In this document: one piece after another, positions 21,732 through 57,512 of the stretch
Position numbering within the stretch: the first letter of the stretch is position 1
Layout of the letters: every line of letters begins with the position of its first letter
From: an uncultured Anaerolineae bacterium
Lineage (GTDB): Bacteria; Chloroflexota; Anaerolineae; Fen-1058
NCBI GenBank assembly: GCA_964353405.1
Contig: CAYGWJ010000121.1
Span: forward strand, 2,421-66,420
DNA: 64,000 nt
Direction of reading: 5' to 3'
Notes under the pieces: model-generated
Told to the model about the DNA's origin: nothing
Seen by the model: only the letters and a program-made list of their open reading frames with translations
Databases searched by the model: none
Made by a program: the position numbers and the translations under genes

Positions 21732-21745
21732 TCGAACCGCCTTGC

Positions 21746-24556: not shown

Positions 24557-24602
24557 CAAATCACCCTATCTCTCATCCAAATTGGTATGCCACCACATGC
24601 TG

Positions 24603-25404: not shown

Positions 25405-25566
25405 AGCGCTGGCGACCAGGCAAAAATGCATCGTCCTGCTCGCACTCCCTCATTGCGCATGGGTTTCCCCCCCCCACACACCCCCTCATTCATTGACGGT
25501 TGCCCCACTTGAATCGTGCGTGACTACCCTCTAGGGTGATCAGAATATTGGGGATATGGGCGCAAC

Positions 25567-25597
25567 AAGTTGGGTGGCCTGCCCAATTGACCTGTCA
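25567..25597 (+). promoter_or_regulatory. 31-bp promoter-like element, copy 2, upstream of the octahaem cytochrome operon
   Basis: AAGTTGGG-N5-TGCCCAATTGACCTGTCA. It is 26/31 identical to copy 1, with identical spacing. Confidence 0.45.
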
Positions 25598-25663
25598 TGG
25601 GGCAATGTGATACCTTTGTGTCAGCAGAACCAGGTGAATGGCCTACACACAAAGGAGAAGAAA

Positions 25664-26446: not shown

Positions 26447-26448
26447 GA

Positions 26449-27240
26449 ATGAGCGATACGAAACTCTCTCGGCGTGATTTTTTGAAATACGCCGGTCTGG
26501 CCGGAGGCGGTTTGCTCGTCGTCGAATTGTTCGGCACGGGCGCAGTCTCGCCGCTCAATCCATCCAACGCCGTCGCGGGCGACAGGGTCAAAGAAGCGCA
26601 AAGCAAGCACAAGTGGGTTATGGTCATTGACCAGAGCAAGTGCATCGGCTGCAACTATTGCACCTATGCCTGCAAAGCGTTCAACGATATCCCCGGCGAT
26701 GCGCAATGGAACACGGTCAGCGTGGAAGGCTCAACCGACAAAGGCCCGGCTTATCTGCCGCGCCCGTGCCAGCATTGCGAAAACGCGCCGTGCGTGGAGG
26801 CCTGCCCGGTCGGAGCGACGTATCACCGCGCCGATGGGCTGGTCGAGATGGATTACGACAAGTGCATCGGCTGCCGCTACTGTCAAGTGGCCTGCCCATA
26901 TAATGCGCGCGTGTTCAACTGGCAAGACCCGGCCAAGCTCGCCAACTCCTATGTGCCCGAGTGGGGCACGCCGGACATTCCGCGCCGTAAGCGCGGCGTG
27001 GTAGAAAAATGCACTTTTTGCGCGCAGCGCATTGACCGTGGGCTGGCACAGGGATTGACCCCCGGCGTGGACCGCGACGCAACGCCCGCGTGTGTGAATG
27101 TCTGCCCGGTGCGTGCGCGGTTGTTCGGCGACTTTTACGATCCCACAAGCCCCGCGAGCCGCGCGCTGGCTCAGCACCGCAGTTTCCGCCTGCGCGAGGA
27201 TCTGGGCACCAATCCGCGCGTGTACTATCTGCCCGCGTGA
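26449..27240 (+). CDS. TAT-exported 4Fe-4S ferredoxin-type subunit (NrfC/PsrB/DmsB family)
   Basis: Twin-arginine signal SRRDFLKYAGLAGGG. Four Cys clusters: CIGCNYCTYAC, CQHCENAPCVEACP, CIGCRYCQVACP and CTFCAQR...CVNVCP. Confidence 0.85.
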   Translation: MSDTKLSRRDFLKYAGLAGGGLLVVELFGTGAVSPLNPSNAVAGDRVKEAQSKHKWVMVIDQSKCIGCNYCTYACKAFNDIPGDAQWNTVSVEGSTDKGPAYLPRPCQHCENAPCVEACPVGATYHRADGLVEMDYDKCIGCRYCQVACPYNARVFNWQDPAKLANSYVPEWGTPDIPRRKRGVVEKCTFCAQRIDRGLAQGLTPGVDRDATPACVNVCPVRARLFGDFYDPTSPASRALAQHRSFRLREDLGTNPRVYYLPA

Positions 27241-27260
27241 GACATTCGACGCCAAAGGAT

Positions 27261-28520
27261 ATGACGATGACAACCTTTGCACAACATTTTCGGTTCAAGC
27301 TCACACCTTTTAGAATATGGATCATCATCCTCGCTCTGATGTGTGCCTTTGGACTGTACGCCGGGATCCTGGTCTTTATCAACGGTCTGTCCATCACGGG
27401 GATGTCTGATCGCGTGCCGTGGGGATTGTGGATCACGATTGACATTTCCTCTATCGGGCTGGGGGCTGGCGCGTTCCTGCTCTCGGCTGCCGTTTACTTG
27501 CTCGGGCTGAAAAAGTACGAACCCATCGCTCGCGTGGCCGTCTTTGTCGGCCTGCTGGGATACACCAGCGCCCTGCTCACGCTATTGCTCGACATTGGCC
27601 GCCCGGATCGCTTTTGGCATGGTCTGGCGTTCTGGAACACACACTCGCTCCTGTGGGAAATCATCATGTGTATCACGCTTTACCTCACAGTGCTCATGGT
27701 CGAGTTTGCGACGATTGTGGCCGAGCATCGCTTCTTTGCGCGCTGGCCCTGGGTCGGCAAGCTGGCTCATCAAGCGCACAAGCTGATGCCGGTGCTGGCT
27801 GTGGTGGGCATGGGTCTCTCGCTCTTGCACCAGTCCTCGCTGGGCGCGGCCTACGGCATCATCAAAGCGAGACCCGTGTGGTACAAGCCTACCATGCCGC
27901 TGATGTTCATCGCACAGGCCATCGCCACCAGCCCGCTGCTTGTCGTGGCGCTGTCCATCATCGTGAGCCGGCTGCGGGGCCGCGAGTTGGTCCGTCAAGA
28001 ACTGCTGTCGGCCGTCGCCCGGTTCAGCGGCTTTGCGCTGCTCGTGTATGCCTACATGCGCTTTTGGGATTTCCTGGCGATGGACTATTCGTATCTGCCG
28101 GTCCGCGCCGAGTCCATGGAACTGCTGACCAGCGGCCCACTGGCCTACAATTTCTGGACCTTTGAAGTGTTCCTGGGCATGGTGATTCCGCTTGTGATCC
28201 TGTTCGACAACAAACTGCGGCACCAAAAAGCGGCTCTGATCGTGGCCGGCTTTCTGGTAGCGTTCGCCCTCATCGTCAACCGCTGGGATACCAACCTGAT
28301 GGGTTTGCTGGTGCCGTTGGCCTATACCACTGCCGTCCTACCTAAAGCTGAGATCAGCTATTCGCCGACTTGGATAGAATGGGCCACGGCGGGCGGCATA
28401 TTGGGCTACTGGTTGATGGCATTCTCGCTGGGCGTCAAGTATTTGCCCATCTTCAAGCAAGAACCGGGGACCAAGGACGAACACGTTGTTGCTCAGGCGC
28501 CCGCACTGGCGCAAGCTTGA
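27261..28520 (+). CDS. NrfD/PsrC-family polytopic membrane quinol-interacting subunit
   Basis: ATG at 27261 (MTMTTFAQHF). About 10 TM helices, including the conserved NrfD-family region ...LLLDIGRPDRFWHGL... Confidence 0.85.
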   Translation: MTMTTFAQHFRFKLTPFRIWIIILALMCAFGLYAGILVFINGLSITGMSDRVPWGLWITIDISSIGLGAGAFLLSAAVYLLGLKKYEPIARVAVFVGLLGYTSALLTLLLDIGRPDRFWHGLAFWNTHSLLWEIIMCITLYLTVLMVEFATIVAEHRFFARWPWVGKLAHQAHKLMPVLAVVGMGLSLLHQSSLGAAYGIIKARPVWYKPTMPLMFIAQAIATSPLLVVALSIIVSRLRGRELVRQELLSAVARFSGFALLVYAYMRFWDFLAMDYSYLPVRAESMELLTSGPLAYNFWTFEVFLGMVIPLVILFDNKLRHQKAALIVAGFLVAFALIVNRWDTNLMGLLVPLAYTTAVLPKAEISYSPTWIEWATAGGILGYWLMAFSLGVKYLPIFKQEPGTKDEHVVAQAPALAQA

Positions 28521-31264: not shown

Positions 31265-32713
31265 ATGGACACCACGAATTTTCTGTCCTCGCTGGCTCAA
31301 CTCTATCCGCCGGAGCGATTGCTGGTCCAGGCCGCGCAGCTTGCGGCTTACGAGTCCGATGCGCTGACGGCGTATCACATCCGGCCCGCTGCCGCCGTCC
31401 TGCCTGAGACGCAAGAACAAGTCATAGAGACCGTCAAGCTGTGCCATCGCTTTGGCGTGCCATTCGTCGCGCGCGGCAGCGGCACGAGTCTCTCCGGTGG
31501 TTCACTGCCCATCAAAGATGGCCTACTCATCGCGCTCAACCGGCTCAATCGCATCGTGCGGATTGACCCAAAGGAGCGCATCGCCGTCGTCGAGCCGGGC
31601 GTGATCAACCTCGACGTGAGCAAAGCGGCGGCTCCCTATGGCTTGTACTATGCGCCCGACCCTTCGAGCCAGGCCATTTGCACGATCGGCGGCAACGTGG
31701 CCTTCAACGCGGGCGGAGCGCACTGCCTCAAATACGGCATGACGAGCAATCACGTGCTGGCGATGAAAGCCGTCTTGCCCGACGGTGAGGTCGTTCAAGT
31801 GGGCAGCGAAAGCATGGAAAGCGTCGGGCCAGATTATGTCGGCCTGCTCGTCGGCTCGGAAGGATTGTTCGGCGTGGCGCTCGAAATCACCTTGAGGCTT
31901 TTGCCCAAACCGGAAAAATTCCGCACAGTGCTGGCCGCGTATCACAGCCTGGAAGCCGCGGGCGAGGCCGTGGCGCGAGTGGTCGCTTCCGGTTTGCTGC
32001 CCGGCGCAATGGAAATTATGGATCGGCTCGCTATTCAGGCAGCCGAGGCGGCGGTTCACGCCCACTATCCGCAAGGCGCGGCGGCGCTCCTCATCGTCGA
32101 GTTAGACGGCGAGGCGCTGCAGGTCGAAGAAGAATTCAAACTCCTCAAGAGCGTCATCGAAGCTTCAGGCGCGTATGAAATTCGAGTCGCCCAGGACGAC
32201 GCCGACCGCCTTCGAATTTGGAAAGGACGCAAGAGCGCGTTCTCGGCCGTAGGGCGGTTGAGTCCCGACTATATCGTGCAGGATGGCGTCGTACCACGCA
32301 GCCGCCTGGGCGCGGCGCTGGCCGAAATCGAGCGAATGAGCGCGGCCTACAACCTCCGCGTGGCGAACGTCTTTCACGCCGGCGACGGCAACTTGCACCC
32401 CCTCATCCTTTACAACGGACGCGAAGCCGGTGCGCTTGAGCGAGCCAAGAAACTAGCCGGCGAGATTTTGCAGTTGTGCATCCAATACGGCGGCTCTATC
32501 ACCGGCGAGCACGGCGTGGGCGTTGAGAAACGCGAGTACCTGCCGCAGATGTTTGGCGAGTTGGACGTGGAGACCATGCGCCGATTGCGACGTGCTATTG
32601 ACCCGCACGAGATTTCGAACCGCGGCAAAATGTTCCCGGACGGCCAAGCGCCTGCGCTCGCCTTTACCGGGCCGCATCCGCTGGAAATCGCCGGTATTAT
32701 TTCACGCGAGTAA
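31265..32713 (+). CDS. glcD: Glycolate oxidase FAD-linked subunit GlcD
   Basis: FAD-binding PCMH-type domain ([15 protein letters not shown]). Adjacent to glcE and glcF. Confidence 0.85.
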
Positions 32714-32718
32714 AGACC

Positions 32719-33795
32719 ATGCAACCCAATACAATCCAAGAACTGCAGGCCATGGTACGCGACGCCGCCGCGCGTCGCGTACTGCCGCGCGGCGGCGGCA
32801 CCAAGCCCGCCCTCTCCACGCCGCCCGATGACGCAACGCCGCTCGACCTGATGGACATCACGGGAGTGGTTGAATATGAGCCGGGCGAATTCACTTTCAC
32901 GGCGCGGGCCGGGACGCGCATCGTGGACGTGAACAAGCTGCTCCAAGAGCACGGGCAATACCTGCCCTTTGACCCGCTCCTCGTCGAGCGGGGCGCGACG
33001 CTGGGTGGGACCGTGGCGGCGGGCATGAGCGGGCCGGGCCGCTATCGCTACGGCGGCGTGCGTGATTTTCTGCTCGGCGTGCGTCACGTAGACGGCGAGG
33101 GTCAGCTCATCCGCAGCGGCGGTAAGGTCGTCAAGAACGCGGCCGGCTTTGACATTCCCAAACTGATGGTCGGCAGCCTGGGCCAACTGGGCGTGCTGGT
33201 CGAGTTGACCTTCAAGGTGTTCCCGGAGCCGGAAGCTTATCGCACACTCGAGCTGGTCTGCCCCAAATTGGAAGACGCACTGCAGGCGCTGTATCGCCTC
33301 AGCGCTTCACAACTCGACCTCATCGCACTTGACCTTGAGCCGACTCTATACCGCTCGACACTCTGGGTCCGCATCGGCGGATTGGCAGACGCCTTGGCTG
33401 CGCGAATAGAGCGCGTGCGCAGCTTGATGGGCGGTGAAATCGTCAACGGCGCCGAGGAAGAAACGCTGTGGCGCAAAGCTCGTGAACTGGAATGGGTGCC
33501 CTCGGGCTGGTCGCTGGTCAAAGTGCCCCTCACCCCGGGCCGCATCGCCGCGCTGGAGCACAGCTTATCCAGCCAGCCCTCACTGCGCCGGTATAGCGGC
33601 GGCGGTCAAGTCGGATGGATTGCCTTGCCGGGATCGTCACAGGTGCTCGATGGCTTGCTGGCTTCGCAAGGTCTATCCGGGCTGACGATCTGGGGGACAC
33701 CCGGTCATTCCCGCCTCGGAGTCCGTGCGGGCGAGCCGCTCGCGCGCCGCGTCAAAGACGCACTCGATCCTGTCAAGCGATTCGTGGAGGTCTAG
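32719..33795 (+). CDS. glcE: Glycolate oxidase FAD-binding subunit GlcE
   Basis: FAD-binding domain ([17 protein letters not shown]). Positioned between glcD and glcF. Confidence 0.8.
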
Positions 33796-33796
33796 C

Positions 33797-35059
33797 GTGC
33801 AGCACACCATTCCACTCGATCAACTGGGCGCGCAGGGACCGGCGATGGCGCACGCCGTCGAGGCGTGCGTGCATTGCGGCTTTTGCCTGCCCGCCTGCCC
33901 CACGTACAAAATCCTGGGCGAAGAAATGGACTCGCCGCGTGGCCGCATCGTGTTGATCAAGTCGGCGCTCGAAGGTCAACTGAACATCGAGGAAACGGCG
34001 CCGTTCATTGATCACTGCCTGGGCTGCCTGGCTTGCGCGCCGGTCTGCCCTTCGGGCGTGCCGTATGGCGAGCTGGTCATGCCCTTCCGGACGTACGCCG
34101 AAAAGCGCCGCCAGCGCAAGCCGATGGACAAACTCCAGCGGACCCTGGTGAACGAGACGCTACCCTATCCGGGCCGCTTCCGTTTGGCGGCGACGATGGG
34201 CAAACTGGCGCAGCCGTTCAGCGGGCTCCTTCCGCAAGAGTTGCGCGGGATGCTGGCAATGTTGCCCGATCATCTGCCGCCCTCACAACCGCTTCCCAGG
34301 CTTTATCCTGCACAAGGCCAACGCCGCGCGCGCGTCGCTCTATTGGCGGGCTGCGTCCAGCAAGTGTTGGCGCCGGAAATCAACTGGGCTACGCTGCGCG
34401 TGCTGGCCCAGAACGGCGTCGAGGTCGTCATCCCGCCAGGTCAGGGCTGCTGCGGCGCGTTGCCGATGCACCAGGGAGAGCAAGAGCGGGGACGCGGGCT
34501 TGCGCTCAAGAATCTGCGTGTGTTTCCAAAGGATGTGGACGCGGTCGTGACCAATGCAGCCGGCTGCGGATCGGGCATCCAAGAGTACGGGCTGCTCTTC
34601 AAAGGTCATCCCGCGCAGAGTGAGGCCGAAGCGTTCGCCCAGCAAGTCAAGGACGTGAGCGTGTTTCTAGCCGAGTTGGGGCTTGAGGGCCCACCGCCGC
34701 TACGTCAACCGCTCAAGCTGGCTTATCACGATGCCTGTCACCTGTCGAACGCACAGGGCATCACGGAGCCTCCGCGCCGATTGCTCAAGAGTATCCCGAA
34801 CTTGACGCTGCTCGAAGTGCCGGAAGGCGACATGTGCTGCGGGTCGGCTGGCGTCTACAACCTGGAACAGCCCGAGATCGCTAACCAGCTCGGCCAGCGC
34901 AAAGCGGAAAACATTTTGCGAACGGGCGGCGAAGGGGTGGCGGCAGGCAACATTGGCTGCCTGGTCCAAATCCGCACACACCTGCAAAGGCTCAACAAGC
35001 CTCTGCCCGTGTATCATACGGTGCAGGTCCTCGACCTGGCTTATGCACAGGCTGTTTGA
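33797..35059 (+). CDS. glcF: Glycolate oxidase iron-sulfur subunit GlcF
   Basis: GTG at 33797 after a GGAGG Shine-Dalgarno. Two Cys-rich ferredoxin-like motifs ([24 protein letters not shown]) plus two CCG domains. Confidence 0.8.
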
Positions 35060-35101: not shown

Positions 35102-35866
35102 CTACTTGAGCTCAAAGCCTTGACTCATTAAAACCGCGTGCAAGAAGGTGCGCGTGGGTTGAGAGACGCGCCGGGCCGAGTGCTCCAGCCAGCCATAGTC
35201 CTCCACCTGCTCCGGCTTGCCCGGCACAGGCGCCTGGCGTCCCTCGTAAATGCCGGTCTCGATCATCGCGCGGTCATAATCCCGCAAGGCCTGGTCTTGA
35301 TCGCGGTTGTACGTTTCCCAATGCAACACCGCCTTGGTCGCCAATCGAGGCCGGAGGCGCGGCGCGGCGGCCGGCCAGCCCACCGTCATGCCGGTGACAG
35401 GCAAGACAAGGTGGGGCAGAGCCAAAAGCTCAATCACCGCTCGCGGGTTGTTGCGGATCGAGCCGATGTAGCAGATGCCCAACCCCAACGATTCGGCCGC
35501 CAGCGCCGCAGTCTGCGACGCGATGGCCGTGTCCACCGTGGCGAGCAGGAAATTCTCTACGTACTCGGCCACCTGCTCGTAGCCACGCAACTGGCAGACG
35601 CGATCCAGCCGATTGAGGTCGGCGCACCAGGCCATAAAGACAGGGGCCTCGGCAATGTGCGATTGGTTGCCGCACAACTCGGCCAGCCGCTTGCGCTTCT
35701 CAGCGTCGGTCACGGCGACGACGCTCATCATCTGCAAATTGGACGAGGTCGAGCTGCGCTGCGCCGCCGCGACAAGGGTCTCGACCATTTCAGCTGGAAC
35801 GGGGTCGGGCTTGTAATGCCGGACAGAGCCGTGACGATGAATCAATGCGATGGTAGATGTGCTCAC
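35102..35866 (-). CDS. NADPH-dependent nitroreductase-family oxidoreductase (NfsA-like)
   Basis: N-terminus HRHGSVRHYKPDPVP, characteristic of the NfsA/FRP family. Confidence 0.75.
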   Translation of the reverse strand: MSTSTIALIHRHGSVRHYKPDPVPAEMVETLVAAAQRSSTSSNLQMMSVVAVTDAEKRKRLAELCGNQSHIAEAPVFMAWCADLNRLDRVCQLRGYEQVAEYVENFLLATVDTAIASQTAALAAESLGLGICYIGSIRNNPRAVIELLALPHLVLPVTGMTVGWPAAAPRLRPRLATKAVLHWETYNRDQDQALRDYDRAMIETGIYEGRQAPVPGKPEQVEDYGWLEHSARRVSQPTRTFLHAVLMSQGFELK

Positions 35867-35993
35867 AGGTTCACTCCGTTATCGTGATGTTGTGCGTATG
35901 AATTATATCACTTGGCAGAAAAGACAATTCTGCGCTAAAATCAAGCTGATTTCAACGCCAACTTCCAGGATATACACCGAGGTCAATCCATCT

Positions 35994-37430
35994 ATGTGGA
36001 GAACGTATTTTACTCCGACTTCCCTAGAGACCGCGCTTCAAATCCTCGCCCAGTACCGCGGGCAGGCCCGCATCATTGCCGGAGGCACGGACCTTCTCAT
36101 TGAACTGGAGCGCAAGGTCAGGACACCGCACGTCCTGATTGACATCACACGCATCCCCGGCCTGGACGAGATCACGTCGAGTGACAGGCAGATCCACCTG
36201 GGCCCCCTTGTCACGCATAACCAGGTGGCCGGCTCGGCGCTATGCGTGGAGCAGGCTTATCCCTTGGCGCGCGCATGCTGGGAGGTCGGCGCACCGCAGA
36301 TTCGCAATCGCGGCACGGTGTCGGGCAACCTCATCACCGCCAGCCCCGCCAACGACACCATCACGCCGCTGTGGGCGCTCGGCGCAAGCGTGACACTGAC
36401 CAGCGTCCGGGGCGAGCGCACGTTGAGCTTTCCCGAGTTCTTTAGAGGCGTGCGCAAGACGGCGATGGAGCCGGACGAAATCCTCACCCGCATTGGTCTG
36501 CCAGCGATGAAGCCGACCGAGCGCGGGACATTCATCAAGCTGGCGCTGCGGCGGGCGCAGGCCATCTCGGTCGTCAACGTCGCCGCTGTGGTCGGCCTCG
36601 CCGATGGGCACGTGACCGAAGCACGCATCACGCTGGGCAGCGTTGCGCCGACGATTGTCCACGCCGTTCACGCGGAAAGCTTCTTGGGAGGCAAGCCGCT
36701 CACCGGTGACATTATTGCGGAAGCGGGCCAGTTGGCCGCGTCAGATTCGCGGCCCATTGACGACATTCGCGGCAGCGCCGATTATCGCCGCGAGATGGTG
36801 CGCGTGATGACGATGCGAGCCTTGACTCAACTGCGCGATGGCACACAGCGCAATGGATACCCGCACCAGCCGGTGATGCTCGCGTCAAATCTCGAACACC
36901 TGCACTGCGCGCAGGCGCAAGTGTCTCGAATCTCAAATAGCATGGGAACATTGATTCACGAGGAAACGGGCCACCAGCCGATCGTGACGACCGTCAACGG
37001 GAAACAGTCTACAGTACGCGGCGCGAACGACAAGACGCTCCTGCGGATGCTGCGCGAAGACATTGGCCTGACGGGGACGAAGGAAGGCTGTGCCGAGGGC
37101 GAGTGCGGCGCGTGCACCGTGTTTCTTGACGGCGTCGCGGTCATGTCGTGCATGGTGGCCGCGCCGCGCGCGCATGGCTCCGAGATTGTCACGGTCGAAG
37201 GGCTGGCGCGCGACGGTCAGCTGCACCCGGTGCAGCAAGCGTTTATCGAAGAAGGCGCGGTACAGTGCGGCTATTGCACGCCAGGCTTTTTGATGGCGGG
37301 CGCCAAGCTGCTGGAAGAAAAGCCTTTACCTTCGCGCTGGGAAATTGAGCATGCCATCACGGGCAACCTGTGCCGCTGCACAGGTTATTACAAGATCATT
37401 CGCGCCATCGAAAAGGCAGCGCAAAAATAG
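35994..37430 (+). CDS. Xanthine-dehydrogenase-family fused FAD-binding (CoxM-like) and [2Fe-2S] (CoxS-like) subunit
   Basis: N-terminal FAD_binding_5 domain (IIAGGTDLLIELERKVRTPHVLIDITRIPGL). C-terminal 2Fe-2S motifs GCAEGECGACTV and QCGYCTPGF...NLCRCTGY. Confidence 0.8.
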   Translation: MWRTYFTPTSLETALQILAQYRGQARIIAGGTDLLIELERKVRTPHVLIDITRIPGLDEITSSDRQIHLGPLVTHNQVAGSALCVEQAYPLARACWEVGAPQIRNRGTVSGNLITASPANDTITPLWALGASVTLTSVRGERTLSFPEFFRGVRKTAMEPDEILTRIGLPAMKPTERGTFIKLALRRAQAISVVNVAAVVGLADGHVTEARITLGSVAPTIVHAVHAESFLGGKPLTGDIIAEAGQLAASDSRPIDDIRGSADYRREMVRVMTMRALTQLRDGTQRNGYPHQPVMLASNLEHLHCAQAQVSRISNSMGTLIHEETGHQPIVTTVNGKQSTVRGANDKTLLRMLREDIGLTGTKEGCAEGECGACTVFLDGVAVMSCMVAAPRAHGSEIVTVEGLARDGQLHPVQQAFIEEGAVQCGYCTPGFLMAGAKLLEEKPLPSRWEIEHAITGNLCRCTGYYKIIRAIEKAAQK

Positions 37431-37488
37431 ACACTTGCGCCTGCGCGCAGTGCAGGTGACGGGCTGCGAGTTGAACAAGGAGAATAGC

Positions 37489-37812
37489 ATGGGTTTCAGA
37501 ATCGAGTCCGGCCGACAACGCCACAACAAGAACGCGTCGCAAAAGGCCAGCGGCATCGGCATGATCCTGATCTTTATCGTGCTGGGTGTTTCGGTCGCAC
37601 TGGGCTGGTGGATTCCATTGAACTATGACGTGCGCGGCTATTTGCCCTTCACCGCTGCCTGGAGTACCCTCGCCATCCAGCTCGTCACGGGCGTGGTGGC
37701 ATTCATTCTTCTGCAGTTCATGATCGTGCTGATTCAGGGGATTCTGTTTCCCCCTCAGCCTGAAGATCAATACAACCAAGACGGCTTGTACATCGGGAAG
37801 AGAGAAAAATGA
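37489..37812 (+). CDS. Small two-TM membrane protein between the molybdoenzyme subunits
   Basis: AAGGAG Shine-Dalgarno before the ATG at 37489. Two hydrophobic helices. The stop overlaps the next gene's start (ATGA). Confidence 0.45.
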
Positions 37813-40004
37813 TGACAAACCTGGTAGGCCAATCCCTCACCCGTGTTGACGCCGTAGGCAAAGTCACAGGCGCAACACTCTACCCCGGCGACCTGACGAT
37901 GCCGGGGATGCTTCACATGAAGGTGCTCTTTGCGCGTCGGCCGCATGCTCGCATCAAGCGGCTGGACGTATCGAAGGCCGAGGCCGCGCCGGGCGTGGTG
38001 GCAGTGTTCACCGCCAAGGATGTGCCGGTCAACGAGTTTGGGCTGATCATGTTCGACGCGCCTGTGCTTGCTATGGACACCGTGCGCTGGATCGGCGAAA
38101 AGGTGGCGCTCGTCGTGGCGGAAACTGAAAAGCAGGCCGCTCGCGCGCTCGACCTGATCGAGGTCGAGTACGAGGATTTGCCGGCCGTGACCGATCCCCG
38201 CGAGGCAATGCAGCCAGGCGTACCGCAGCTTCACCCTGAACCAGCGAATAACGTCCTGGTGCATTACCGCATCCGTCAGGGTGATGTGGAGGCTGCCTTT
38301 CAGCATGCCGATGTGATCGTGGAGGGCACGTATCACACACCCTTCCAGGAACACGCCTTCCTACAGCCCGAAGCAGGACTGGCCTACATGGATGAAGAGG
38401 GCCGCGTCACGGTGCAGGTCGCCGGTCAATGGACACACGAAGACCAGGAGCAGATCGCGCACGCGCTCCAGCTCCCGCACGACCAGGTGCGTGTGATCTA
38501 TCCCGCCATCGGCGGCGCATTCGGCGGACGCGAGGATATGACTGTGCAGATCATCCTGGCGCTAGCCGCGTGGCGGCTTGCGCAGCGTGGCGTGAAGCGA
38601 CCGGTCAAGATTGTGTGGAGCCGCGAAGAGTCCATGCTCGGCCATCACAAACGCCACCCGATGTTCTTCAGGACCCGCTGGGGCGCAACGAAAGAAGGCA
38701 AGCTCGTCGCCGCCGAGGTCGAGGCCATCAGCGACGCGGGCGCCTATGCGTATACCAGCACCAAGGTGCTGGGCAACACCACGCTCATGTGCACTGGCGC
38801 GTATGAAATCCCCAACGTCAAGGTGGACACGTACGCGGTTTACACGAACAATATTCCCACCGGGGCATTCCGAGGCTTTGGCGGGCCGCAGGGTCTGTTT
38901 GCCGCCGAAATGCAGATGAACAAGCTGGCAGAAAAGCTGGGGATGGACCCGGTCGAGCTGCGAACAAAGAACCTCGTGCACGAAGGCTCGCTTCTGTCTG
39001 TCGGCACGCCTCTTCCGCGCGGCGTCTCGATGCCGCAAGTGGCCGAAAAGGCCGCGCTGGCGGGCGGCTGGAAGCTCAAAGACGCCAAGTGGCAGCGGCC
39101 ACACGCCCCGTCTTGTATATCAAAGAACAAGCGCTACGGCACCGGCTACGCCTGCGGATTCAAGAACGTAGGCTTTTCCTTTGGCGCGCCGGAGCAATGC
39201 ACAGCCAGGATTGAGCTGCGCGGCACGACTGAAATTGACGAGGCGATTGTGTATCACTCGGGCGCGGACTGCGGCCAAGGCGCGCATACCGTTTTTGCGC
39301 AGATGGCCGCCGAGGCGCTCGAATTGCCCATCGAAAAGATCAGGCTCGTCGTTTCCGACACAGCCTACACAGCCAACTCGGGCAGCGCTTCAGCCAGCCG
39401 CATGACGTTCATGGCGGGCAACTCGATCCTGGGCGCGGTGGAGCTGGCGCTCAAGAAATGGCGGGGCGAAGAACGCCCGGCGATTGGCGTTTACCAATAT
39501 CGCCCGCCCAAGACCACGCCCTATGACCCCGAGACCGGCAAAAGCGAGCCGAACTTTGCCTATGGCTATGTGGCGCAAGTGGCCGAGGTGGAGGTGGACA
39601 TCGAGACGGGTCACGTGCGGCTGCTACGCGTGTGGTGCGCCGACGACGTGGGCACGGCCGTCAATCCACAGTTGGTTCAAGGACAAATCGAAGGCGCAGT
39701 CGTGCAGGCGCAGGGCTATGCCATCCTGGAGAATTTTGTCGTCGGCAAAGACGGCCAGGTGCAAACGCCTCACCTGAGCACCTACCTTATCCCGACCGTG
39801 CTCGACGTGCCGCAAGAGGTGCATTCGCTCATCCTGGAATATCCCGACCCCATCGGCCCGTTCGGCGCGCGTGGCATGGGCGAGATGCCCTTCCTGCCCA
39901 TGGCGCCGGCGATCACGGCTGCCGTCCACGATGCGATCGGCGTGTGGTTCGACGATTTTCCGCTCACGCCGGATCGAGTGCTAAAAGCGCTAAGAGGAGA
40001 ATAA
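37809..40004 (+). CDS. Xanthine-dehydrogenase/aldehyde-oxidoreductase-family molybdopterin-binding large subunit
   Basis: 731 aa with Ald_Xan_dh_C/C2 family signatures ([26 protein letters not shown]). Confidence 0.85.
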
Positions 40005-40007: not shown

Positions 40008-40751
40008 ATGAGCATTCCTGATCTTCCTACCGTTCCAGAAGTGAGCGGACAATCGCGCAGCGGGATCAAGTATCATATCCTGGGCACCGTCCAGCAGACG
40101 CTGGCGGTCGAGTTGCAGCCGGGGCAGGTCATCTATTCCGATACGGGCGCCATGTCGTGGATGACGGCTGCGGTGACGATGAACACCAAATCCGGCGGCG
40201 GGTTGGGCGGCATGCTCAAGCGCGCAGTTTCCGGCGCGACGGCCTTCATCATTGATTTCGAGGCCGCCGGACAGCCCGGACAGGTGGCGTTTACCACCGA
40301 CTTTCCGGGCAAAATCCTGGCGATTGAACTGGACGCGGGGCAGACGGTCATCATGCACAAGCACGCCTTCCTGTGCGCGGAAAAGACCGTTGCGCTGGAC
40401 GTGTTCTTTACACGCAAACTGGGCGCAGGGTTGTTTGGCGGCGAGGGTTTTGTCCTGCAAAAGCTGACCGGGCCGGGCCTGACATTTGCCGAATTGGACG
40501 GCGATGCCGTCGAATATCGGTTGCAGCCCAATCAGGTGATGCGCGTTGAGCCGGGGCACGTGGCGATGTTTGAAAGCAGCGTGGCTTTTGACATCGAGAT
40601 GATCAAAGGCATGGCGAACATTTTGCTGGGGGGCGAGGGGTTGTTCCTCGCCACACTCAAAGGGCCGGGGCGTATCTGGCTGCACTCGATGACCGAGAGC
40701 AAGATGGCACAGCGGCTGATCCAGTACATGCCGGCCAAGTCGAGCGGATAA
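40008..40751 (+). CDS. AIM24/TIGR00266 (DUF124) family protein
   Basis: Gly-rich beta-repeat sequence (GEGFVLQKLTGPG...GEGLFLATLKGPG) typical of AIM24. Confidence 0.65.
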   Translation: MSIPDLPTVPEVSGQSRSGIKYHILGTVQQTLAVELQPGQVIYSDTGAMSWMTAAVTMNTKSGGGLGGMLKRAVSGATAFIIDFEAAGQPGQVAFTTDFPGKILAIELDAGQTVIMHKHAFLCAEKTVALDVFFTRKLGAGLFGGEGFVLQKLTGPGLTFAELDGDAVEYRLQPNQVMRVEPGHVAMFESSVAFDIEMIKGMANILLGGEGLFLATLKGPGRIWLHSMTESKMAQRLIQYMPAKSSG

Positions 40752-51364: not shown

Positions 51365-52156
51365 ATGGAACTTGGCGAAGCACTGGGCATCCAACCGGGC
51401 GATATGGCCGCGTTCGTCGGCGCGGGTGGCAAGACCACGTCCATCTGGCGCATTCAAGGCGAGCTCGCCACACAAGGCTTGCGCTCTATCCTGACGACGA
51501 CGACCAAGATCATGGAGCCGGTCATGCCACCTGACGGCGCGTTGATGCTAACAGCCCGGCCCGACGCCGGCCGCGTAGGCGCTCTACTTGACCGCGCGCC
51601 GCGCCTGGCATTGGCCTCGCGCCGGTTGGACGAGCCGTATCCTTGCCACGCCGACCACCCCGTTCCATCGCGTCCGTACAAAGTGGATGGCCTGCCAACC
51701 GAGACGCTGAACGAGCTTGTCAGGCAATGGCCGGGCGTTACCTGGCTGGTCGAAGCCGATGGCGCCAAGGGCTGCGGCCTCAAGCTGCCCGCCGCTCACG
51801 AGCCTGTCATTCCAGGTTGCGCGACCATCGTCGTGGTCATGGCGCACCTCGATGTGCTAGGCTGTCCTCTCGATGAGACGACCGTGCATCGAGTGACTGA
51901 TGCAACGCGTGCACTGGGCGTGCCCGTCGGAACGCCGCTCGCGCCTGCGATGTTTGCCCGCGTGCTGACGGATGATACGCTGGGATTCAAGGGCATTCCC
52001 CACCGAGCGCGCGCCGTCGCATTGCTCACACAGCGAGGCCCAACACTACATGCGGATGCCCTCGCGCTGGCCGAGGCGCTTGGCGCGCGCTACAGTCGTG
52101 TCGTCATCGCCGCGTTGCGCGCGGACAAGCCAGTCTTGCAGGTCAGGATACAATGA
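51365..52156 (+). CDS. yqeC: Putative selenium-dependent molybdenum hydroxylase accessory protein YqeC
   Basis: N-terminus AFVGAGGKTTSIWRI plus the WLVEADGAKG pattern of the YqeC (TIGR03172) family. Confidence 0.65.
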   Translation: MELGEALGIQPGDMAAFVGAGGKTTSIWRIQGELATQGLRSILTTTTKIMEPVMPPDGALMLTARPDAGRVGALLDRAPRLALASRRLDEPYPCHADHPVPSRPYKVDGLPTETLNELVRQWPGVTWLVEADGAKGCGLKLPAAHEPVIPGCATIVVVMAHLDVLGCPLDETTVHRVTDATRALGVPVGTPLAPAMFARVLTDDTLGFKGIPHRARAVALLTQRGPTLHADALALAEALGARYSRVVIAALRADKPVLQVRIQ

Positions 52157-53553
52157 GCGAGCAACCGGTCGCCGCGATGATCCTGGCCGCTGGCGCATCC
52201 GAGCGGTATGGCCAGCCCAAGGCCCTGCTTGACTGGAACGGCCAGCCGCTCATTGCGCACATCGCGCGAGCGGTGCTGGCCTCACCCGCGCGGCCTGTTG
52301 TCGTCGTGCTGGGCGCGCACGCGGAAGAGATTCGCCCGGCGCTGAATGGCTTGCCGGTTCACATCGTCGTCAATCCAAACTGGCGCGATGGCATGAGCGC
52401 GTCCATTCGCGCAGGACTGGCTGCGCTGCCCAACGGAGCTCGCGCTGTGTTGTTCGTCATGGGCGATCAACCGGGCATCACGCCTGACCTGGTCGAGTCG
52501 CTCATCGCCCAGTTCCGCGAGACGGGCGCGCTCATCGTCGAGCCGCGCTTCCGCGACCAGCCCGGCACGCCGACGCTGTTCGCTTGCCAGATGTTCCCAG
52601 AATTGATGCAACTCACGGGCGACCGGGGCGGACGTCCGCTCATCAACAAATATTCTGACCGCGTGGCCGTTGTTCAAGTGGGCGACCTCGCCACGCTGAA
52701 AGATATTGACACTCCTGAGGATTACAAAGAACAAATGTCAAATTTCAAATCCCAAAAAGAAGAGTTGAACAAGATTCGCGCCGTCGTGAGCGATATGGAT
52801 GGCGTGCTGTGGCGCGGCGACAAGCCGATGCCGGGGCTGATCGAGTTCTTTGCGTTCCTGCGCGAGCGGGACATTCACTTTATCCTGGCAACGAACAATG
52901 CCACGCGCACCGCCAGGCAATACGCCGACAAGCTCGCCAGTCACGGCGTGACGGTATCAGAGGCCGAGATTCTGCCGTCGTGCGATGTGGTTTCAGATTA
53001 TCTCGTCACGATCGCCAAGCCGGGCGCGCGTGTGTTCGTCGTGGGCGAAGCCGCCTTGGCCGATAGCCTTGCGGCGCGCGGCTTTGTCATCAGCCAAGAC
53101 GAAGCCGAGTTTGTTGTGGCCGGGCTGGATCGCCAGGTCACCTACGCCAAGGTTGCGCACGCCACGCGCCTGATTCGCAACGGCGCACAATTCATCGGTA
53201 CCAATCCCGACAAGACCTGGCCAAGCGAGACCGGCGTGACGCCCGGCGCGGGTGCAGTTCTGGCCTTTATAGAAGCCGCCACCGATGTCAAGCCCTTCAT
53301 CGTCGCCAAGCCGGAGCCGGTGATGTTCCAGCAGGCGCTCGCGCGGTTGGGCACTCGGCCCGAAGAAACAGTCATGATCGGCGACCGGCTAGAGACCGAC
53401 ATCGAGGGCGGCCATCGCGCCGGGCTCAAGACCCTCCTGGTGCTTTCGGGCATCAGCACTGAGGGGGACGTCGAACAGACTGGCATCCGCCCGGATTGGA
53501 CCTTCCGCGACATTGGTGAATTGACGCTGGTGTGGCGAAAGCTAGTTGGATGA
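52153..53553 (+). CDS. Fusion of molybdenum cofactor cytidylyltransferase MocA (N-terminal) and a HAD-IIA NagD-like phosphatase (C-terminal)
   Basis: N-terminal MobA-like nucleotidyltransferase region (AMILAAGASERYGQPKALLDW...VMGDQPGITPD). C-terminal HAD motifs (VVSDMDGVLWRG, ...GDRLETDIEGG...). Confidence 0.75.
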   Translation: MSEQPVAAMILAAGASERYGQPKALLDWNGQPLIAHIARAVLASPARPVVVVLGAHAEEIRPALNGLPVHIVVNPNWRDGMSASIRAGLAALPNGARAVLFVMGDQPGITPDLVESLIAQFRETGALIVEPRFRDQPGTPTLFACQMFPELMQLTGDRGGRPLINKYSDRVAVVQVGDLATLKDIDTPEDYKEQMSNFKSQKEELNKIRAVVSDMDGVLWRGDKPMPGLIEFFAFLRERDIHFILATNNATRTARQYADKLASHGVTVSEAEILPSCDVVSDYLVTIAKPGARVFVVGEAALADSLAARGFVISQDEAEFVVAGLDRQVTYAKVAHATRLIRNGAQFIGTNPDKTWPSETGVTPGAGAVLAFIEAATDVKPFIVAKPEPVMFQQALARLGTRPEETVMIGDRLETDIEGGHRAGLKTLLVLSGISTEGDVEQTGIRPDWTFRDIGELTLVWRKLVG

Positions 53554-54626
53554 ACAAGCCCGCAGCTTTACTTGATTTGAGCTTGGACGAACTGCAGAAC
53601 CTGTTTCAATCCTGGGGCGAGCCGCCTTATCGCGCCAAACAAGTCTGGAGCAGGCTCTACCAAAAGCTGGCCGCGTCCTATGATGAGATGACAGAGCTTT
53701 CCAGAGCGCTGCGCGAAAAGCTGGCGCAAGAGACCGTCATCGGTCGGCTCACGCCGCGCGCCGAGCAGCGCTCGTCGGACGGGCAGACGCGCAAGCTTCT
53801 CTTTGTCCTGCCCGATGGCGCGCAGGTCGAGTCAGTGCTGATGAGTTACGAGCGCCGACGCACGACGTGCATCTCCACTCAAGCGGGTTGTGCGATGAAC
53901 TGCTCGTTTTGCGCCACAGGCCAGGGCGGCTTTCAACGCAACCTCACCTCTGGTGAGATCATCGAGCAGGTTCTCTTTTTCGCCCGCGAGCTTGCCATCT
54001 CCAATCCCCAATCTCCCATCTCCAATATCGTATTCATGGGTATGGGCGAGCCGTTCGCCAATTACGATCAGGTCGTGGCCGCCGTCCGCCGACTCAACGA
54101 CCCGCAAGGGTTCAACTTGGGCGCGCGGCGGATGACCGTGTCCACCGTGGGACTGGTGCAGGGTATCCGAAAGCTGGCGAGCGAAGACATCCAGATCAAC
54201 CTGGCCGTGTCGCTCCATGCGGCAACCGACGAGTTGCGCAATCAACTGGTGCCCATCAACAAGCGGTACCCACTGAGTGAAATCATGTCCGCCGTGCGCG
54301 AGTATATCGAACGGACACATCGTCGCGTGAGTTTTGAGTGGGCCCTCATCGAAGGAGTGAACGACACGCCGGAACAGGCCCACGCGCTGGCACAACTGAT
54401 CAAGGGAATGCTGTGTCACGTCAACCTGATTCCGCTCAACCCGACGAGCGGCTACCCCGGCGCGGCTTCGACGCGTGAGCGCATCGCGGCGTTTCGTTCC
54501 ATTCTAGAGTCGGCCAACATTCCCAACACGCTCCGCCTGCGGCGCGGGATAGATATTCAAGCGGGTTGCGGACAACTTCGGCAAAGGGTCAACTCACCAA
54601 TGAGAAACGGGTCAGTTAGCAAATGA
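53550..54626 (+). CDS. rlmN: 23S rRNA / tRNA m2A methyltransferase RlmN (radical SAM)
   Basis: CAMNCSFCATGQ radical-SAM cluster motif and conserved N- and C-terminal RlmN regions. The ATG at 53550 overlaps the upstream stop (ATGA); an in-frame ATG at 53532 is an alternative start. Confidence 0.85.
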   Translation: MNKPAALLDLSLDELQNLFQSWGEPPYRAKQVWSRLYQKLAASYDEMTELSRALREKLAQETVIGRLTPRAEQRSSDGQTRKLLFVLPDGAQVESVLMSYERRRTTCISTQAGCAMNCSFCATGQGGFQRNLTSGEIIEQVLFFARELAISNPQSPISNIVFMGMGEPFANYDQVVAAVRRLNDPQGFNLGARRMTVSTVGLVQGIRKLASEDIQINLAVSLHAATDELRNQLVPINKRYPLSEIMSAVREYIERTHRRVSFEWALIEGVNDTPEQAHALAQLIKGMLCHVNLIPLNPTSGYPGAASTRERIAAFRSILESANIPNTLRLRRGIDIQAGCGQLRQRVNSPMRNGSVSK

Positions 54627-54815: not shown

Positions 54816-55070
54816 ATGAGCAAAAAAGAGAAGCTAGTCCAAAAAATCAGGAACAACCCTAAAATAGTCTCATTTGAGGATTTGGACAGCGTCCTTACTT
54901 GGTATGGTTTTGTCAAGCGTTCATCCAGCTCGGGAACCAGCCATGTTTACTACACATTGGGTGTCTATCAAATATCGGTTCCCTACAGACGCCCGCATGT
55001 CAAAGCGACCTATGTCAGACAAGTGTTGGACATCCTTGACCAGATTGATGAAGAACAAGAGTTGCTCTAG
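54816..55070 (+). CDS. hicA: HicA-family type II toxin (mRNA interferase, YcfA-like)
   Basis: 84 aa. ...GFVKRSSSSGTSHVYYTL...VPYRRPHVKATYVRQVLDIL matches the HicA GSH motif and C-terminal pattern. It lies directly upstream of a HicB homolog in a low-GC island. Confidence 0.6.
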   Translation: MSKKEKLVQKIRNNPKIVSFEDLDSVLTWYGFVKRSSSSGTSHVYYTLGVYQISVPYRRPHVKATYVRQVLDILDQIDEEQELL

Positions 55071-55110
55071 TCTGGTGGACTTGTTCGGCATACGCTGCTC
55101 GTAAAGGTGT

Positions 55111-55977
55111 TTGAAGATGATCGAACGAAAAGATCTCTATTATTATCTCTCTTTGCCTTACACGATTCAATTGATTCGGGAAGACGAAGAAACATGGTTT
55201 GCCCGTGTGGTCGAATTACCAGGTTGCATGACAGAGGGGGATTCGGCACAAGAAGCGGCCGAGATGATTCTCGATGCAATGACAGGCTGGATCGAAATCT
55301 CTTTGGAGGATGGGCGCGCCATTCCCGAACCCCGTCCTACTGAAGACTACAGCGGCAAATTTCTAGTGCGTCTGCCGCGCTCTTTGCATCGGGAATTGGT
55401 GCAGGCGGCTGAACGCGAGAGAGTCAGCCTGAATTCATTTGTTAACGCGTCTTTGGGACGAGCAGTGGGGCAGCCACCGACTCGCAAGCCAGAGAAAACA
55501 TCAGTCGGTGATGCCAGGCCGGCATGGCCGCGGTTGAGCGAGGCGGCGCGCAAAGCGATGTTGGATGCTGGCTGCGAGGTCGAAGCGCAAGAGATCAACG
55601 AACAACTCTTTGCAAACTGGGTAGAGCGAAATATTGAAGATGTGCAAGCGACTCTGGCGAGTGGGCATTTTCAAGATGCTGCCGCGCGCCTGGAACGACA
55701 TCTGATCGAGTTACAGACCGCGGGCGAGGCCAGCCCGCTGATGGGCGTGTTTTGCCGACTGCTATCCCTATTGCGTACTCAAGTTGAACAAAACGCGCAG
55801 TTGCGCATCAGTTTGGTGAACCAGGTTCTGAATCAAGATCAAATCATGGCGCGTGCTTATGCCCAGGTATCAACCACCTTGCCGGTGCAAGAGCCAAGAG
55901 AAGTAACATACTCGGCTTTTGGACACGAGTGGGCACAATCCATGGAAGACTCGCTCAAGAAATGGGGAGCGCGATAA
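55111..55977 (+). CDS. hicB: HicB-family antitoxin with a ~170-aa C-terminal extension
   Basis: N-terminal HicB/UPF0150 fold (YTIQLIREDEETWFARVVELPGCMTEGDSAQEAAEM). RHH motif GKFLVRLPRSLHRELVQAAERERVSLNSFV. The 170-aa tail has no recognisable domain. Confidence 0.65.
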   Translation: MKMIERKDLYYYLSLPYTIQLIREDEETWFARVVELPGCMTEGDSAQEAAEMILDAMTGWIEISLEDGRAIPEPRPTEDYSGKFLVRLPRSLHRELVQAAERERVSLNSFVNASLGRAVGQPPTRKPEKTSVGDARPAWPRLSEAARKAMLDAGCEVEAQEINEQLFANWVERNIEDVQATLASGHFQDAAARLERHLIELQTAGEASPLMGVFCRLLSLLRTQVEQNAQLRISLVNQVLNQDQIMARAYAQVSTTLPVQEPREVTYSAFGHEWAQSMEDSLKKWGAR

Positions 55978-57512
55978 TGGCCGATACACCCATTCCAGTT
56001 TCGGAAAGCTTGAAGCGCGTCAATGCGGCCCTCGCGTTGCGCGAGATTCCGGATTATCCTGCGGCGTTGGCGCAACTGGCGCTTTCGCTTCAGGCTGATC
56101 CCCGCAATGCCGTGGCGCAGTTGCTTTTGGGTCTGACCTATCAGGATTTGGGTCATCCCCAACTGGCTCAGGCCTGTTTTGCCCAGGCGCTTGAGCTAGA
56201 GCCTGACTCGGCTCAAATCCGGCAAGCGTATGGCCTGTTCCTAATTCGCCATGCAGAATACCAGGAGGCGATGGCGTTAACCACTTTCCTCTTTGAGCAT
56301 GACAAGCACGAATCGGCACTGATACAGAGATTCGCCTCCGCGTTTTGGGAGGCCGATCAAGTGGATGATGCTATTGATCTCTTGTGGCAAGGTCGTGAAC
56401 AATGGCCGCAAGATGCCGAAATCGCCAGGCGTCTCGCGCACTTTTTGGCAGAAGTTGAAAAAGTTGACGAAGCAATTGCAGTCTTGGAAAACATTGCGGA
56501 ATTATCGCCCAATGTTGATGGCTTGTTTGACTTGGCTTCCCTGTATGCGCAGAAAAAAGATTATGCCTCGGCCGTCAAGCCACTCCGGCGGGCAGGGCAA
56601 CTAGAACCAAACAATGTGCGACCTTGGTTGGAATTATCTGAGTGCTATTTCAATCTGGATGATTATGAGCAAGCGATTGCTGCAGCCGATCAAGCACTTC
56701 AGCGTGATCCCAACAACTTTGCTGGCTGGATGAGCAAGTGGGGAATACTAGCCTCGCTGTCCCAAGCTGATAAGAGTTACCTTGCGAGTCTGGATGAATC
56801 GCTAGAGAATGGAATCCACGCTCTAATGTCTGTTGCTGACAGGCAAAAAGCATTGTATCGGTACAGTCTGTATCGCTGGCTTGATTTTCGTGATCGCAAT
56901 GTCAACAGTTCTGCCGCTGATTTGGCTGCCGGAGCATGGATGACGCGACACTTTAAAGATTTTGACAATTTGGGGTTCTTTCCAACTTGTGAAGAGAACT
57001 GGCAACGGGCGAAAGACCTGCTCACATTGGTCAAGCAACATGGATTAGGCGATCCGGCAATTGCCGACGCCAATTTGGGGTACATCTATCTCCGCCAGCA
57101 AGAGTATGAACTGGCCCTGGAAGCATTGCGCGCTGCAATCCAGGAGGCTCACCAGGACTCGATGGCGCTCCTCCATGAAGCCGCGTGGATCAATGGCGAT
57201 TTTTCAAGGACTAAAGTCGAGCGGTTTCCACATCGCTTGACACCAATTCGGCTAGTTGCGCTGTCGAATCTGGCAACGGCCTACTGGCTCAGTGGTAAGC
57301 CTGAAGCGGCGTTTGAGACGATTCAAGAAGCGATTTCAAGTGTGCCCCAAGATAACATCGGTTATCGTGTTTCCGGTTGCTTGCGCCTAGCGCAGGGCGA
57401 GGTCGAACTAGCCCGCTCAGAGTGGGAAAAGGCATTCAACTTGGCTGAAGACGAACAAGAGGCCGCACTGATTGAAGGCTGGTTAGCCACCTTGCCGCCT
57501 GTCCAGAAATAA
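55977..57512 (+). CDS. TPR-repeat protein
   Basis: Multiple TPR-like helical repeats (AxxxYxxALELEP...). The ATG at 55977 overlaps the hicB stop (TAATG); the ORF-track start at 55929 is the alternative. GC content is lower than the window average. Confidence 0.65.
   Translation: MADTPIPVSESLKRVNAALALREIPDYPAALAQLALSLQADPRNAVAQLLLGLTYQDLGHPQLAQACFAQALELEPDSAQIRQAYGLFLIRHAEYQEAMALTTFLFEHDKHESALIQRFASAFWEADQVDDAIDLLWQGREQWPQDAEIARRLAHFLAEVEKVDEAIAVLENIAELSPNVDGLFDLASLYAQKKDYASAVKPLRRAGQLEPNNVRPWLELSECYFNLDDYEQAIAAADQALQRDPNNFAGWMSKWGILASLSQADKSYLASLDESLENGIHALMSVADRQKALYRYSLYRWLDFRDRNVNSSAADLAAGAWMTRHFKDFDNLGFFPTCEENWQRAKDLLTLVKQHGLGDPAIADANLGYIYLRQQEYELALEALRAAIQEAHQDSMALLHEAAWINGDFSRTKVERFPHRLTPIRLVALSNLATAYWLSGKPEAAFETIQEAISSVPQDNIGYRVSGCLRLAQGEVELARSEWEKAFNLAEDEQEAALIEGWLATLPPVQK

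Follow-up and report, generated by a model that had tools for sequence, protein, structure and literature searches.

The genes considered here, yqeC and an overlapping gene that joins a MocA-like cytidylyltransferase in frame to a HAD-IIA phosphatase, lie in a 64,000-nucleotide stretch of contig CAYGWJ010000121.1 from an uncultured Anaerolineae bacterium, hereafter referred to as the window. The MocA-HAD architecture is genuine and lineage-restricted; it is globally rare, yet common within one Anaerolineae/Thermoflexales lineage. YqeC and MocA are most likely an accessory pair for the molybdopterin cytosine dinucleotide (MCD) form of the molybdenum cofactor (Moco), with the xanthine dehydrogenase (XDH)-family enzyme encoded 11 kb upstream as their client. 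Comparison of the loci suggests that the fusion is, on balance, probably a passenger fusion, that is, co-expression baggage in which each half would keep its own ancestral activity, and not a new coupled catalyst.

An earlier note on this DNA, made from the sequence alone, had recognized the two open reading frames (ORFs) and their domains, and both the coordinates (Table 1) and the profile matches bear this out. The N-terminal half of the fusion matches NTP_transf_3 (PF12804) over residues 8-193 (E=1e-42). Among the specific models TIGR03310 fits this half best, at 172.9 bits, with far lower scores elsewhere (MobA 48.8 bits, GlmU and IspD about 40, and sugar nucleotidyltransferase models no higher than 42). 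The domain also matches Escherichia coli MocA (E=1e-11), and its nearest PDB entries are the MobA/MocA-related 3d5n and 2waw/2we9. Alignment of 21 fused proteins revealed the invariant residues L11-A-A-G14, R18, G20, K23, D105-x-P107, L142-F143, G156-D-x-G-G-R161 and D184/D186; the nucleotide-binding signature of the MobA superfamily (xAAGxSxRxGxxK) and the acidic D-x-P metal site (D105-Q-P107 here) are both kept. The C-terminal half is matched by HAD-IIA domains (Hydrolase_6 and Hydrolase_like, with a C2-type cap) across residues 208-458, with E values of 1.2e-25 for PF13344 and 3e-25 for PF13242, and passes the cutoff of TIGR01460 (149.7 bits against 100.15). The catalytic motifs I (D214-x-D216), II (T247), III (K386) and IV (D411/D416) align to those of PH1952 and are invariant in the fused proteins and in 70 standalone orthologues, consistent with the description of this domain in the earlier note as complete. 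The HAD domain reached the cutoff of no narrower HAD-IIA equivalog, scoring 172.3 bits against 368 for NagD/UmpH (PRK10444), 219.3 against 247.65 for the YutF type (TIGR01457) and 222.7 against 475 for the TK1734 2-phosphoglycolate phosphatase. The nearest structures are PH1952 (1zjj), 1yv9, the Geobacillus NPPase (4ift), TM1742 (1vjr) and NagD (2c4n). The intervening linker varies in length and sequence, alignment columns 201-225 of the 21 fused proteins being gap-rich and unconserved, and it is the least confident part (predicted local distance difference test (pLDDT) 61-79) of an AlphaFold2 model with an overall pLDDT of 89 and a predicted template modelling score (pTM) of 0.59. The model contains no confident MocA-HAD interface, a judgement that draws on the pTM and is weak evidence. 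As modelled, the protein most likely consists of two folded domains flexibly tethered by the linker.

A search of 5.8 billion proteins, clustered at 90% identity, returned more than 100 clusters that match 97-100% of the fusion at 46-99% identity, with PF12804 accompanied by the HAD Pfam domains in every one. These derive from metagenome-assembled genomes (MAGs) of Anaerolineae, Chloroflexi and Thermoflexales in JGI, ENA, NCBI and Logan assemblies, and at least five of the matches listed are YqeC-MocA-HAD triple fusions of 695-768 amino acids (confirmed for P0243). Among 1.84 billion clusters at 50% identity, the full-length fusion was found in about 8-12 of the best 150 representatives. The architecture, described at first as uncommon, is therefore so on the global scale but not within the one Anaerolineae/Thermoflexales lineage. 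The earlier note also envisaged that the two domains could prove to be separate ORFs joined by a frameshift during assembly or sequencing. Given the ATGA overlaps between neighbouring genes in this region, one wrong base could be enough to join two of them, and in two MAG contigs (L008:9014-11391 and L031:3-1892) the MocA and HAD parts are in different frames, which may be an assembly frameshift or a natural split. The same uninterrupted architecture, with a linker that is variable but always in frame, is shared by more than 100 independent clusters from four sources, ruling out an artefact, whose probability is negligible. Each of the three families is known, and databases already list the fused proteins, though under misleading names; 'HAD-IIA family hydrolase' and '4-nitrophenyl phosphatase' disregard the MocA half. 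A literature search on MocA-HAD fusions found no relevant paper.

The source of the HAD half is indicated by the rlmN locus. A genome-collection scan with the fusion protein, in which the search patterns fell in the HAD domain and mostly standalone HAD genes were returned, identified 10 fused loci and about 70 standalone HAD-IIA loci. The standalone proteins (~270 amino acids) are 40-55% identical to the window HAD domain and are nearly all from Chloroflexota, plus a Methylococcaceae group. In ORF-level phmmer searches rlmN came after the standalone HAD in 32 of 70 loci, immediately after it in 23, and it directly follows the HAD in 11 fused loci too; in other loci RlmN_N and Radical_SAM domains were found in the downstream gene. 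Fused and unfused versions share a common backbone, YfhO(-), PMT_2(-), GT2(-), a variable segment, HAD, rlmN, rpe, rpmB(-), asp23, fakA, degV, recG and coaD, to which the window conforms, with a HicAB/TPR insertion after rlmN. The YqeC, MocA and HAD modules are shuffled between these loci. A separate YqeC precedes MocA-HAD in the window and L083, while L002, L089 and P0243 encode YqeC-MocA-HAD as a single protein, and MocA-HAD occurs without an adjacent YqeC in L001, L003-7 and L084-86. YqeC-MocA is followed by a separate HAD in L035 and, within the window's own subclade, in L090, and YqeC is followed by HAD without MocA in L087/L088. In a neighbour-joining tree of the HAD domains (200 bootstraps) only two groups are solid, L002 with L087 and L088 (100%) and the window subclade (76%); the deep topology is not resolved. 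As L087 and L088 group with the triple-fusion locus L002 at full bootstrap support, MocA has most likely been lost from them, judging by this tree.

The HAD domain itself bears no imprint of its partner. Positions conserved in at least 90% of 34 fused HADs yet in no more than 25% of 70 standalone HADs numbered zero, and 35 positions, all the catalytic ones included, are conserved in both sets. Elsewhere, the orthologous HAD-IIA is fused to unrelated partners, namely an N-terminal SIS domain, a C-terminal class-I methyltransferase and a cNMP-binding domain (L054:8341-9804; P0279; P0293; P0356). The rlmN backbone, the module shuffling, the lack of fusion-specific residues and of a confident interface, and the existence of other fusion partners say, in so far as gene comparison can, that the HAD half would be the housekeeping phosphatase gene that resides upstream of rlmN throughout Chloroflexota, taken in by read-through, with nothing to indicate a change of function. 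The yqeC-mocA cassette would have landed before the HAD gene at the rlmN locus in the Anaerolineae/Thermoflexales lineage, and loss of the stop codon at an ATGA-type junction would have welded mocA to it. The HAD half would then continue its ancestral job as the lineage's ordinary NagD/YutF-like HAD-IIA phosphomonoesterase, while the MocA half would convert Mo-molybdopterin and cytidine triphosphate into MCD for the XDH-family enzyme at 35.8-40.0 kb.

The same data bear on a quite different proposal, raised in the earlier note, that the fusion couples cytidylyl transfer to hydrolysis. The HAD domain would remove pyrophosphate (PPi), cytidine mono- or diphosphate or unreacted phosphorylated pterin, pulling or proofreading MCD synthesis, with YqeC as a third subunit. 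Such coupling would be in keeping with the maintenance of the fusion in frame over more than 100 clusters down to 46% identity, with the triple fusions and with the retention of every HAD catalytic residue. It would also fit the presence, among the PDB matches of the HAD domain, of NagD (2c4n) and LHPP (2x4d), HAD-IIA relatives that are a nucleotide monophosphatase and a pyrophosphatase-active enzyme, respectively. However, the HAD orthologue works without MocA in most Chloroflexota, where it sits beside rlmN and not beside Moco genes, MocA has most likely been lost between yqeC and HAD in L087/88, and a split version (L090) lies inside the window subclade. Furthermore, fusion-specific residues and a confident interface are both lacking, and the YqeC-MocA proteins linked to XDH at 33 loci (see below) carry no HAD. 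Coupling is thus unsupported and appears rather unlikely.

YqeC passes the cutoff of TIGR03172 in profile searches (123.5 bits against 73.05), and matches PF19842 (E=1e-31) and E. coli YqeC (E=4e-14). Residues 18-25 of the protein (VGAGGKTT) form a Walker A motif and residues 128-134 (LVEADGA) a Walker-B-like one, and in the alignment G19-A-G-G-K23-T24, the TTTT strand and LVEADGA are all invariant. The predicted structure (pLDDT 95.6, pTM 0.93) models as a SIMIBI P-loop NTPase, a class that also takes in the metallocentre-assembly factors UreG, HypB and CooC. In view of this fold class and of the recurrent YqeC-MocA fusions, YqeC is probably a nucleotide-dependent helper in cofactor formation or hand-over, which would follow a logic analogous to that of MobB with MobA, or of UreG, HypB and CooC with their metallocentres. 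The source annotation of some YqeC proteins reads 'molybdenum cofactor cytidylyltransferase'. The stop codon of yqeC and the start codon of the fusion gene overlap as ATGA, read directly, and the TGA of the fusion overlaps the probable ATG of rlmN in the same manner (ggATGAac at 53548-53555). No terminator-like site lies between yqeC, mocA::HAD and rlmN, and the regional terminator count is no higher than chance. Given the overlaps at both junctions and the lack of a terminator between the genes, the three look like one translationally coupled unit.

The XDH-family enzyme invoked in the earlier note is real, since domain matches identify both a fused FAD/2Fe-2S gene and a molybdenum-subunit gene; the first may start at 35994, as given there. 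The best NCBIfam model for the Mo subunit is PucD (600 bits, below the cutoff of 783). A metagenome scan with this subunit identified 80 loci with orthologues (64-89% identity), FAD/FeS orthologues adjoining them in 44, and the 47 loci with at least 3 kb of downstream sequence were taken as informative. In 33 of these 47 the Mo subunit is followed by a YqeB of the TIGR03309 type and then by YqeC-MocA as a single ORF (loci among L091 and L095-L172). Six carry MocA, with or without YqeC, and without YqeB, and the remaining eight, which include the nearest relative with context (L094, 86% identity), have none of the three. An XdhC-like gene lies upstream in several of the loci with MocA but not YqeB (L116, L125, L135, L142 and L165). 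The YqeB proteins of the orthologous operons are bona fide (TIGR03309 294-317 bits, cutoff 220), and named homologues come from Anaerolineae, Anaerolineales and Chloroflexota MAGs. A complete example, L173, has the order XdhC, FAD/FeS, small ORF, DUF6909, Mo subunit, YqeB and YqeC-MocA. The MocA domain is duplicated in the YqeC-MocA-MocA fusions P0258, P0260 and P0300 (L091:4586-6604), whose MobA-like domains are in tandem, the second scoring higher with TIGR03310; at P0258 the fusion follows a Mo subunit 68% identical to that of the window and a YqeB (TIGR03309 304.8 bits). As the pair suggested in the earlier note stands directly behind XDH orthologues, with YqeB, in 33 of the 47 loci, the window XDH is the likeliest client of YqeC and MocA.

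Several further features were observed around these operons. In 15 of 82 XDH loci (L173:6019-7752, L092:364-2100 and 13 others) a DUF6909 protein of ~580 amino acids is encoded between the FAD/FeS gene and that of the Mo subunit; the window lacks it. The corresponding 380-nt gap in the window is filled by a small plus-strand ORF, 37345-37812, which has no Pfam match and is kept in the nearest relatives L093 and L094 (57% identity over 102 residues). A 122-residue unannotated gene occupies the equivalent position in L173, and the window ORF may encode an unrecognised small XDH-associated protein. E. coli YqeB comprises an XdhC-like N-terminal half and a TIGR03309 C-terminal half. These halves are separate genes in L094:3853-4764, L116, L125, L135, L142, L151, L159, L165 and L171, where xdh is preceded by the XdhC-like gene and a TIGR03309 protein is often missing.

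A number of observations weigh against the interpretation given above. The window XDH is 11 kb from the fusion with opposite-strand genes between them, and its assignment as client is by comparative evidence only. The MocA domain scores slightly under the TIGR03310 cutoff of 186.45 bits; the XDH-linked Anaerolineae MocA domains likewise score low with this model (141-174 bits). The fusion stays in frame across proteins that are only 46-50% identical, and this persistence, together with the triple fusions, hints by Rosetta-stone logic at selection for physical linkage. A single clade of fused HADs receives a bootstrap value of only 3.5%, such that the tree cannot tell whether L035 and L031 are independent juxtapositions, and independent origins would favour a functional link.

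As most of the orthologous XDH operons (33 of 47) carry a true YqeB, it is reasonable to ask, as the earlier note did, whether the window enzyme depends on selenium. YqeC is a published marker of the selenium-cofactor trait (PMC2276186), which is reported mainly in Firmicutes and Enterobacteriales (PMC5322559). The signature of the trait, however, is SelD, YqeB and YqeC together, and YqeB or YqeC by itself may take part in processes independent of selenium (PMC5029168; PMC2276186). In Clostridioides difficile, where yqeC adjoins mocA, deletion of yqeC produces no clear phenotype but both yqeB and selD are required; that organism also shows that selD can lie apart from the other genes (PMC11448449). 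The biochemical roles of YqeB and YqeC are still unknown (bioRxiv 10.1101/2025.04.24.650524). Searches with E. coli YqeB (phmmer) found no homologue in the window, at any fusion-bearing locus or in 90 HAD/YqeC-centred loci (1.45 Mb), and Anaerolineae YqeB found none in the window. SelD gave no match (best E=0.08) in the window and the same 90 loci, and none in 82 XDH loci; the operons with YqeB and YqeC-MocA showed no selD within 10 kb. The window contains no tRNA genes, and so no tRNA-Sec. The Mo subunit fails the model of selenium-dependent XDH (TIGR03311, 487.2 bits against a cutoff of 830.45).

A complete selenium-cofactor machine is thus very doubtful, one in which the XDH would be a selenium-dependent Mo hydroxylase and its selenium-containing Moco would be matured by YqeC and MocA(-HAD), with the HAD perhaps replacing YqeB, for example by converting selenophosphate to selenide. 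Consistent with such a machine are the marker status of YqeC, the bona fide YqeB and YqeC-MocA that flank the XDH orthologues of Anaerolineae MAGs, and the fact that the window lineage lacks an adjacent YqeB but has a HAD fused to MocA. The lack of SelD and YqeB at the loci searched argues the other way, as do the need for all three markers (PMC5029168), the mild outcome of yqeC deletion relative to yqeB in C. difficile (PMC11448449), the closer resemblance of the Mo subunit to PucD, and a fused HAD that is unchanged relative to its standalone orthologues. In addition, YqeC-MocA occurs with XdhC and without YqeB in L116 and L125. Selenium dependence of the window XDH by itself is unproven either way, and the pattern associates YqeC with MocA more than with selenium. 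It is similarly improbable that HAD-IIA is an integral third part of a YqeC-MocA-HAD machine, for instance one that replaces YqeB by hydrolysing selenophosphate, thiophosphate or PPi.

The genes directly upstream on the opposite strand, GT2, PMT_2 and YfhO (window, L002-4, L087, L089), raise the further question of whether the transferase and phosphatase act outside Moco metabolism, making a nucleotide-activated sugar for these divergent glycosylation genes. Cytidylyltransferase-phosphatase pairs are known in sugar activation, and in L054 and P0279 the orthologous HAD is joined to a phosphosugar-binding SIS domain. Against this, TIGR03310 outscores every sugar nucleotidyltransferase model by a wide margin (172.9 bits against 42 at most), the transferase recurs in fusions with YqeC and in positions behind XDH genes, and L083-L086 have no glycosylation genes upstream, making a sugar role highly improbable for the pair. 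The SIS-HAD fusion does hint at a sugar-phosphate substrate for HAD-IIA. The assignment of YqeC and MocA to Moco, with the HAD as a captured neighbour, is the one retained here.

Table 1. Features of the window discussed in the text, with positions counted from its first nucleotide.
Feature	Position	Strand	Description
yqeC	51365..52156	+	263-aa YqeC-family protein; PF19842, TIGR03172, Walker A
mocA::HAD fusion ORF	52153..53553	+	466 aa, one continuous reading frame
MocA-like cytidylyltransferase domain	52153..52731	+	residues 1-193; PF12804, TIGR03310
Inter-domain linker	52732..52773	+	residues ~194-207; variable among homologues, low pLDDT
HAD-IIA (NagD/YutF-like) phosphatase domain and stop codon	52774..53553	+	residues 208-466; PF13344, PF13242, TIGR01460
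rlmN (radical-SAM rRNA/tRNA methyltransferase)	53550..54626	+	probable ATG at 53550; conserved downstream partner of the HAD gene
XDH-family FAD-binding and 2Fe-2S subunit (fused)	35850..37430	+	FAD_binding_5, CO_deh_flav_C, Fer2, Fer2_2
XDH-family molybdenum-binding subunit	37809..40004	+	Ald_Xan_dh_C, MoCoBD_1, MoCoBD_2; probable YqeC/MocA client

The surroundings of these genes show local peculiarities. Between rlmN and fakA, at 54816-57512, the window holds a HicA-like gene (54816-55070), HicB (55111-55977) and a 527-residue TPR protein where relatives have rpe, rpmB and asp23, and the GC content of 0.52, against ~0.60 elsewhere, suggests an acquired island. Directly upstream of XDH, a GlcD/GlcE/GlcF-like glycolate-oxidase set (31265-35059) comprises two FAD-oxidase genes and a CCG/4Fe-4S gene, and is not shared by the nearest relative, L094. 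An AIM24-family gene (40008-40751) follows the window Mo subunit directly; AIM24 is also found 6 kb upstream of MocA-HAD in L084/L085 (L084:3273-3998), and its position in the window is probably coincidence. Further upstream, 14242-28520 and 4251-13216 are occupied by an extensive cluster of multihaem cytochromes c, together with NrfD-like and 4Fe-4S subunits, a two-component system and genes for cytochrome c maturation (CcmF, DsbD-like).

In evolutionary terms the HAD fusion is probably a chance result of gene order; the by-products of its analysis, the tie between YqeC and MocA and the large set of Chloroflexota xdh-yqeB-yqeC-mocA operons, are more useful. Because HAD-only names hide the sole recognisable MocA in the locus, MCD synthesis would wrongly be counted as missing when the metabolism of these Anaerolineae is reconstructed. 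The recurrent YqeC-MocA fusion, whether or not accompanied by YqeB, HAD or another MocA, together with the SIMIBI fold, suggests a role for YqeC at the step of MCD synthesis or hand-over and not in selenium chemistry as such, which would explain why yqeC has little phenotype in C. difficile compared with yqeB. The xdh operons with the full set of YqeB, YqeC and MocA markers are numerous and previously undiscussed, and if selD proves to co-occur with them the selenium-cofactor trait would extend to Chloroflexota, a new host group. Were the HAD indeed a third component, it would for the first time make the YqeB/YqeC step, at which the selenium or sulfur ligand is installed, accessible to biochemistry.

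The window can be compared with several known systems. In E. coli, MocA (YgfJ), YqeC and YqeB (b2875-b2877) belong to the same families as their window counterparts, with the same nucleotide-binding signature and XDH-family association, and the MCD-forming activity of MocA is described as established (Neumann et al. 2009, as cited in PMC13653126). In contrast to E. coli, the window MocA has a C-terminal HAD-IIA and is translationally coupled to yqeC, neither the XdhC-like nor the TIGR03309 half of YqeB is nearby in the window, and the pair resides in a housekeeping rlmN locus instead of a purine-catabolism cluster. The xdh operons of Anaerolineae (L173, L091, L095) are closer, as they are from the same phylum, encode the same YqeC and MocA families and have Mo subunits 64-72% identical to that of the window. 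These operons, however, encode YqeB and a YqeC-MocA fusion protein and involve no HAD, whereas the window has its accessory genes at a distance of 11 kb, with a separate YqeC and a MocA-HAD fusion, and showed no YqeB. The PucB/PucA accessories of the Bacillus subtilis XDH PucCDE provide a second example of a MocA-like accessory for XDH; the window Mo subunit is closest to PucD and the MocA domain matches the PucB model (92 bits), although all scores are under the equivalog cutoffs. The Puc system has neither YqeC nor HAD, and the window in turn lacks PucA/XdhC. With respect to the phosphatase, NagD, YutF and PH1952 (2c4n, 3pdw, 1zjj) share the fold family, C2 cap and identical catalytic motifs (E values of 1e-45 to 1e-53), but the window HAD is below every subfamily cutoff and is appended to a nucleotidyltransferase. 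The pairing of MocA with YqeC has its analogue in MobA-MobB and the bifunctional MobA/MobB (NF011056), where, in molybdopterin guanine dinucleotide synthesis, a nucleotidyltransferase of the MobA superfamily is likewise paired or fused with a small SIMIBI-class P-loop NTPase, the GTPase MobB.

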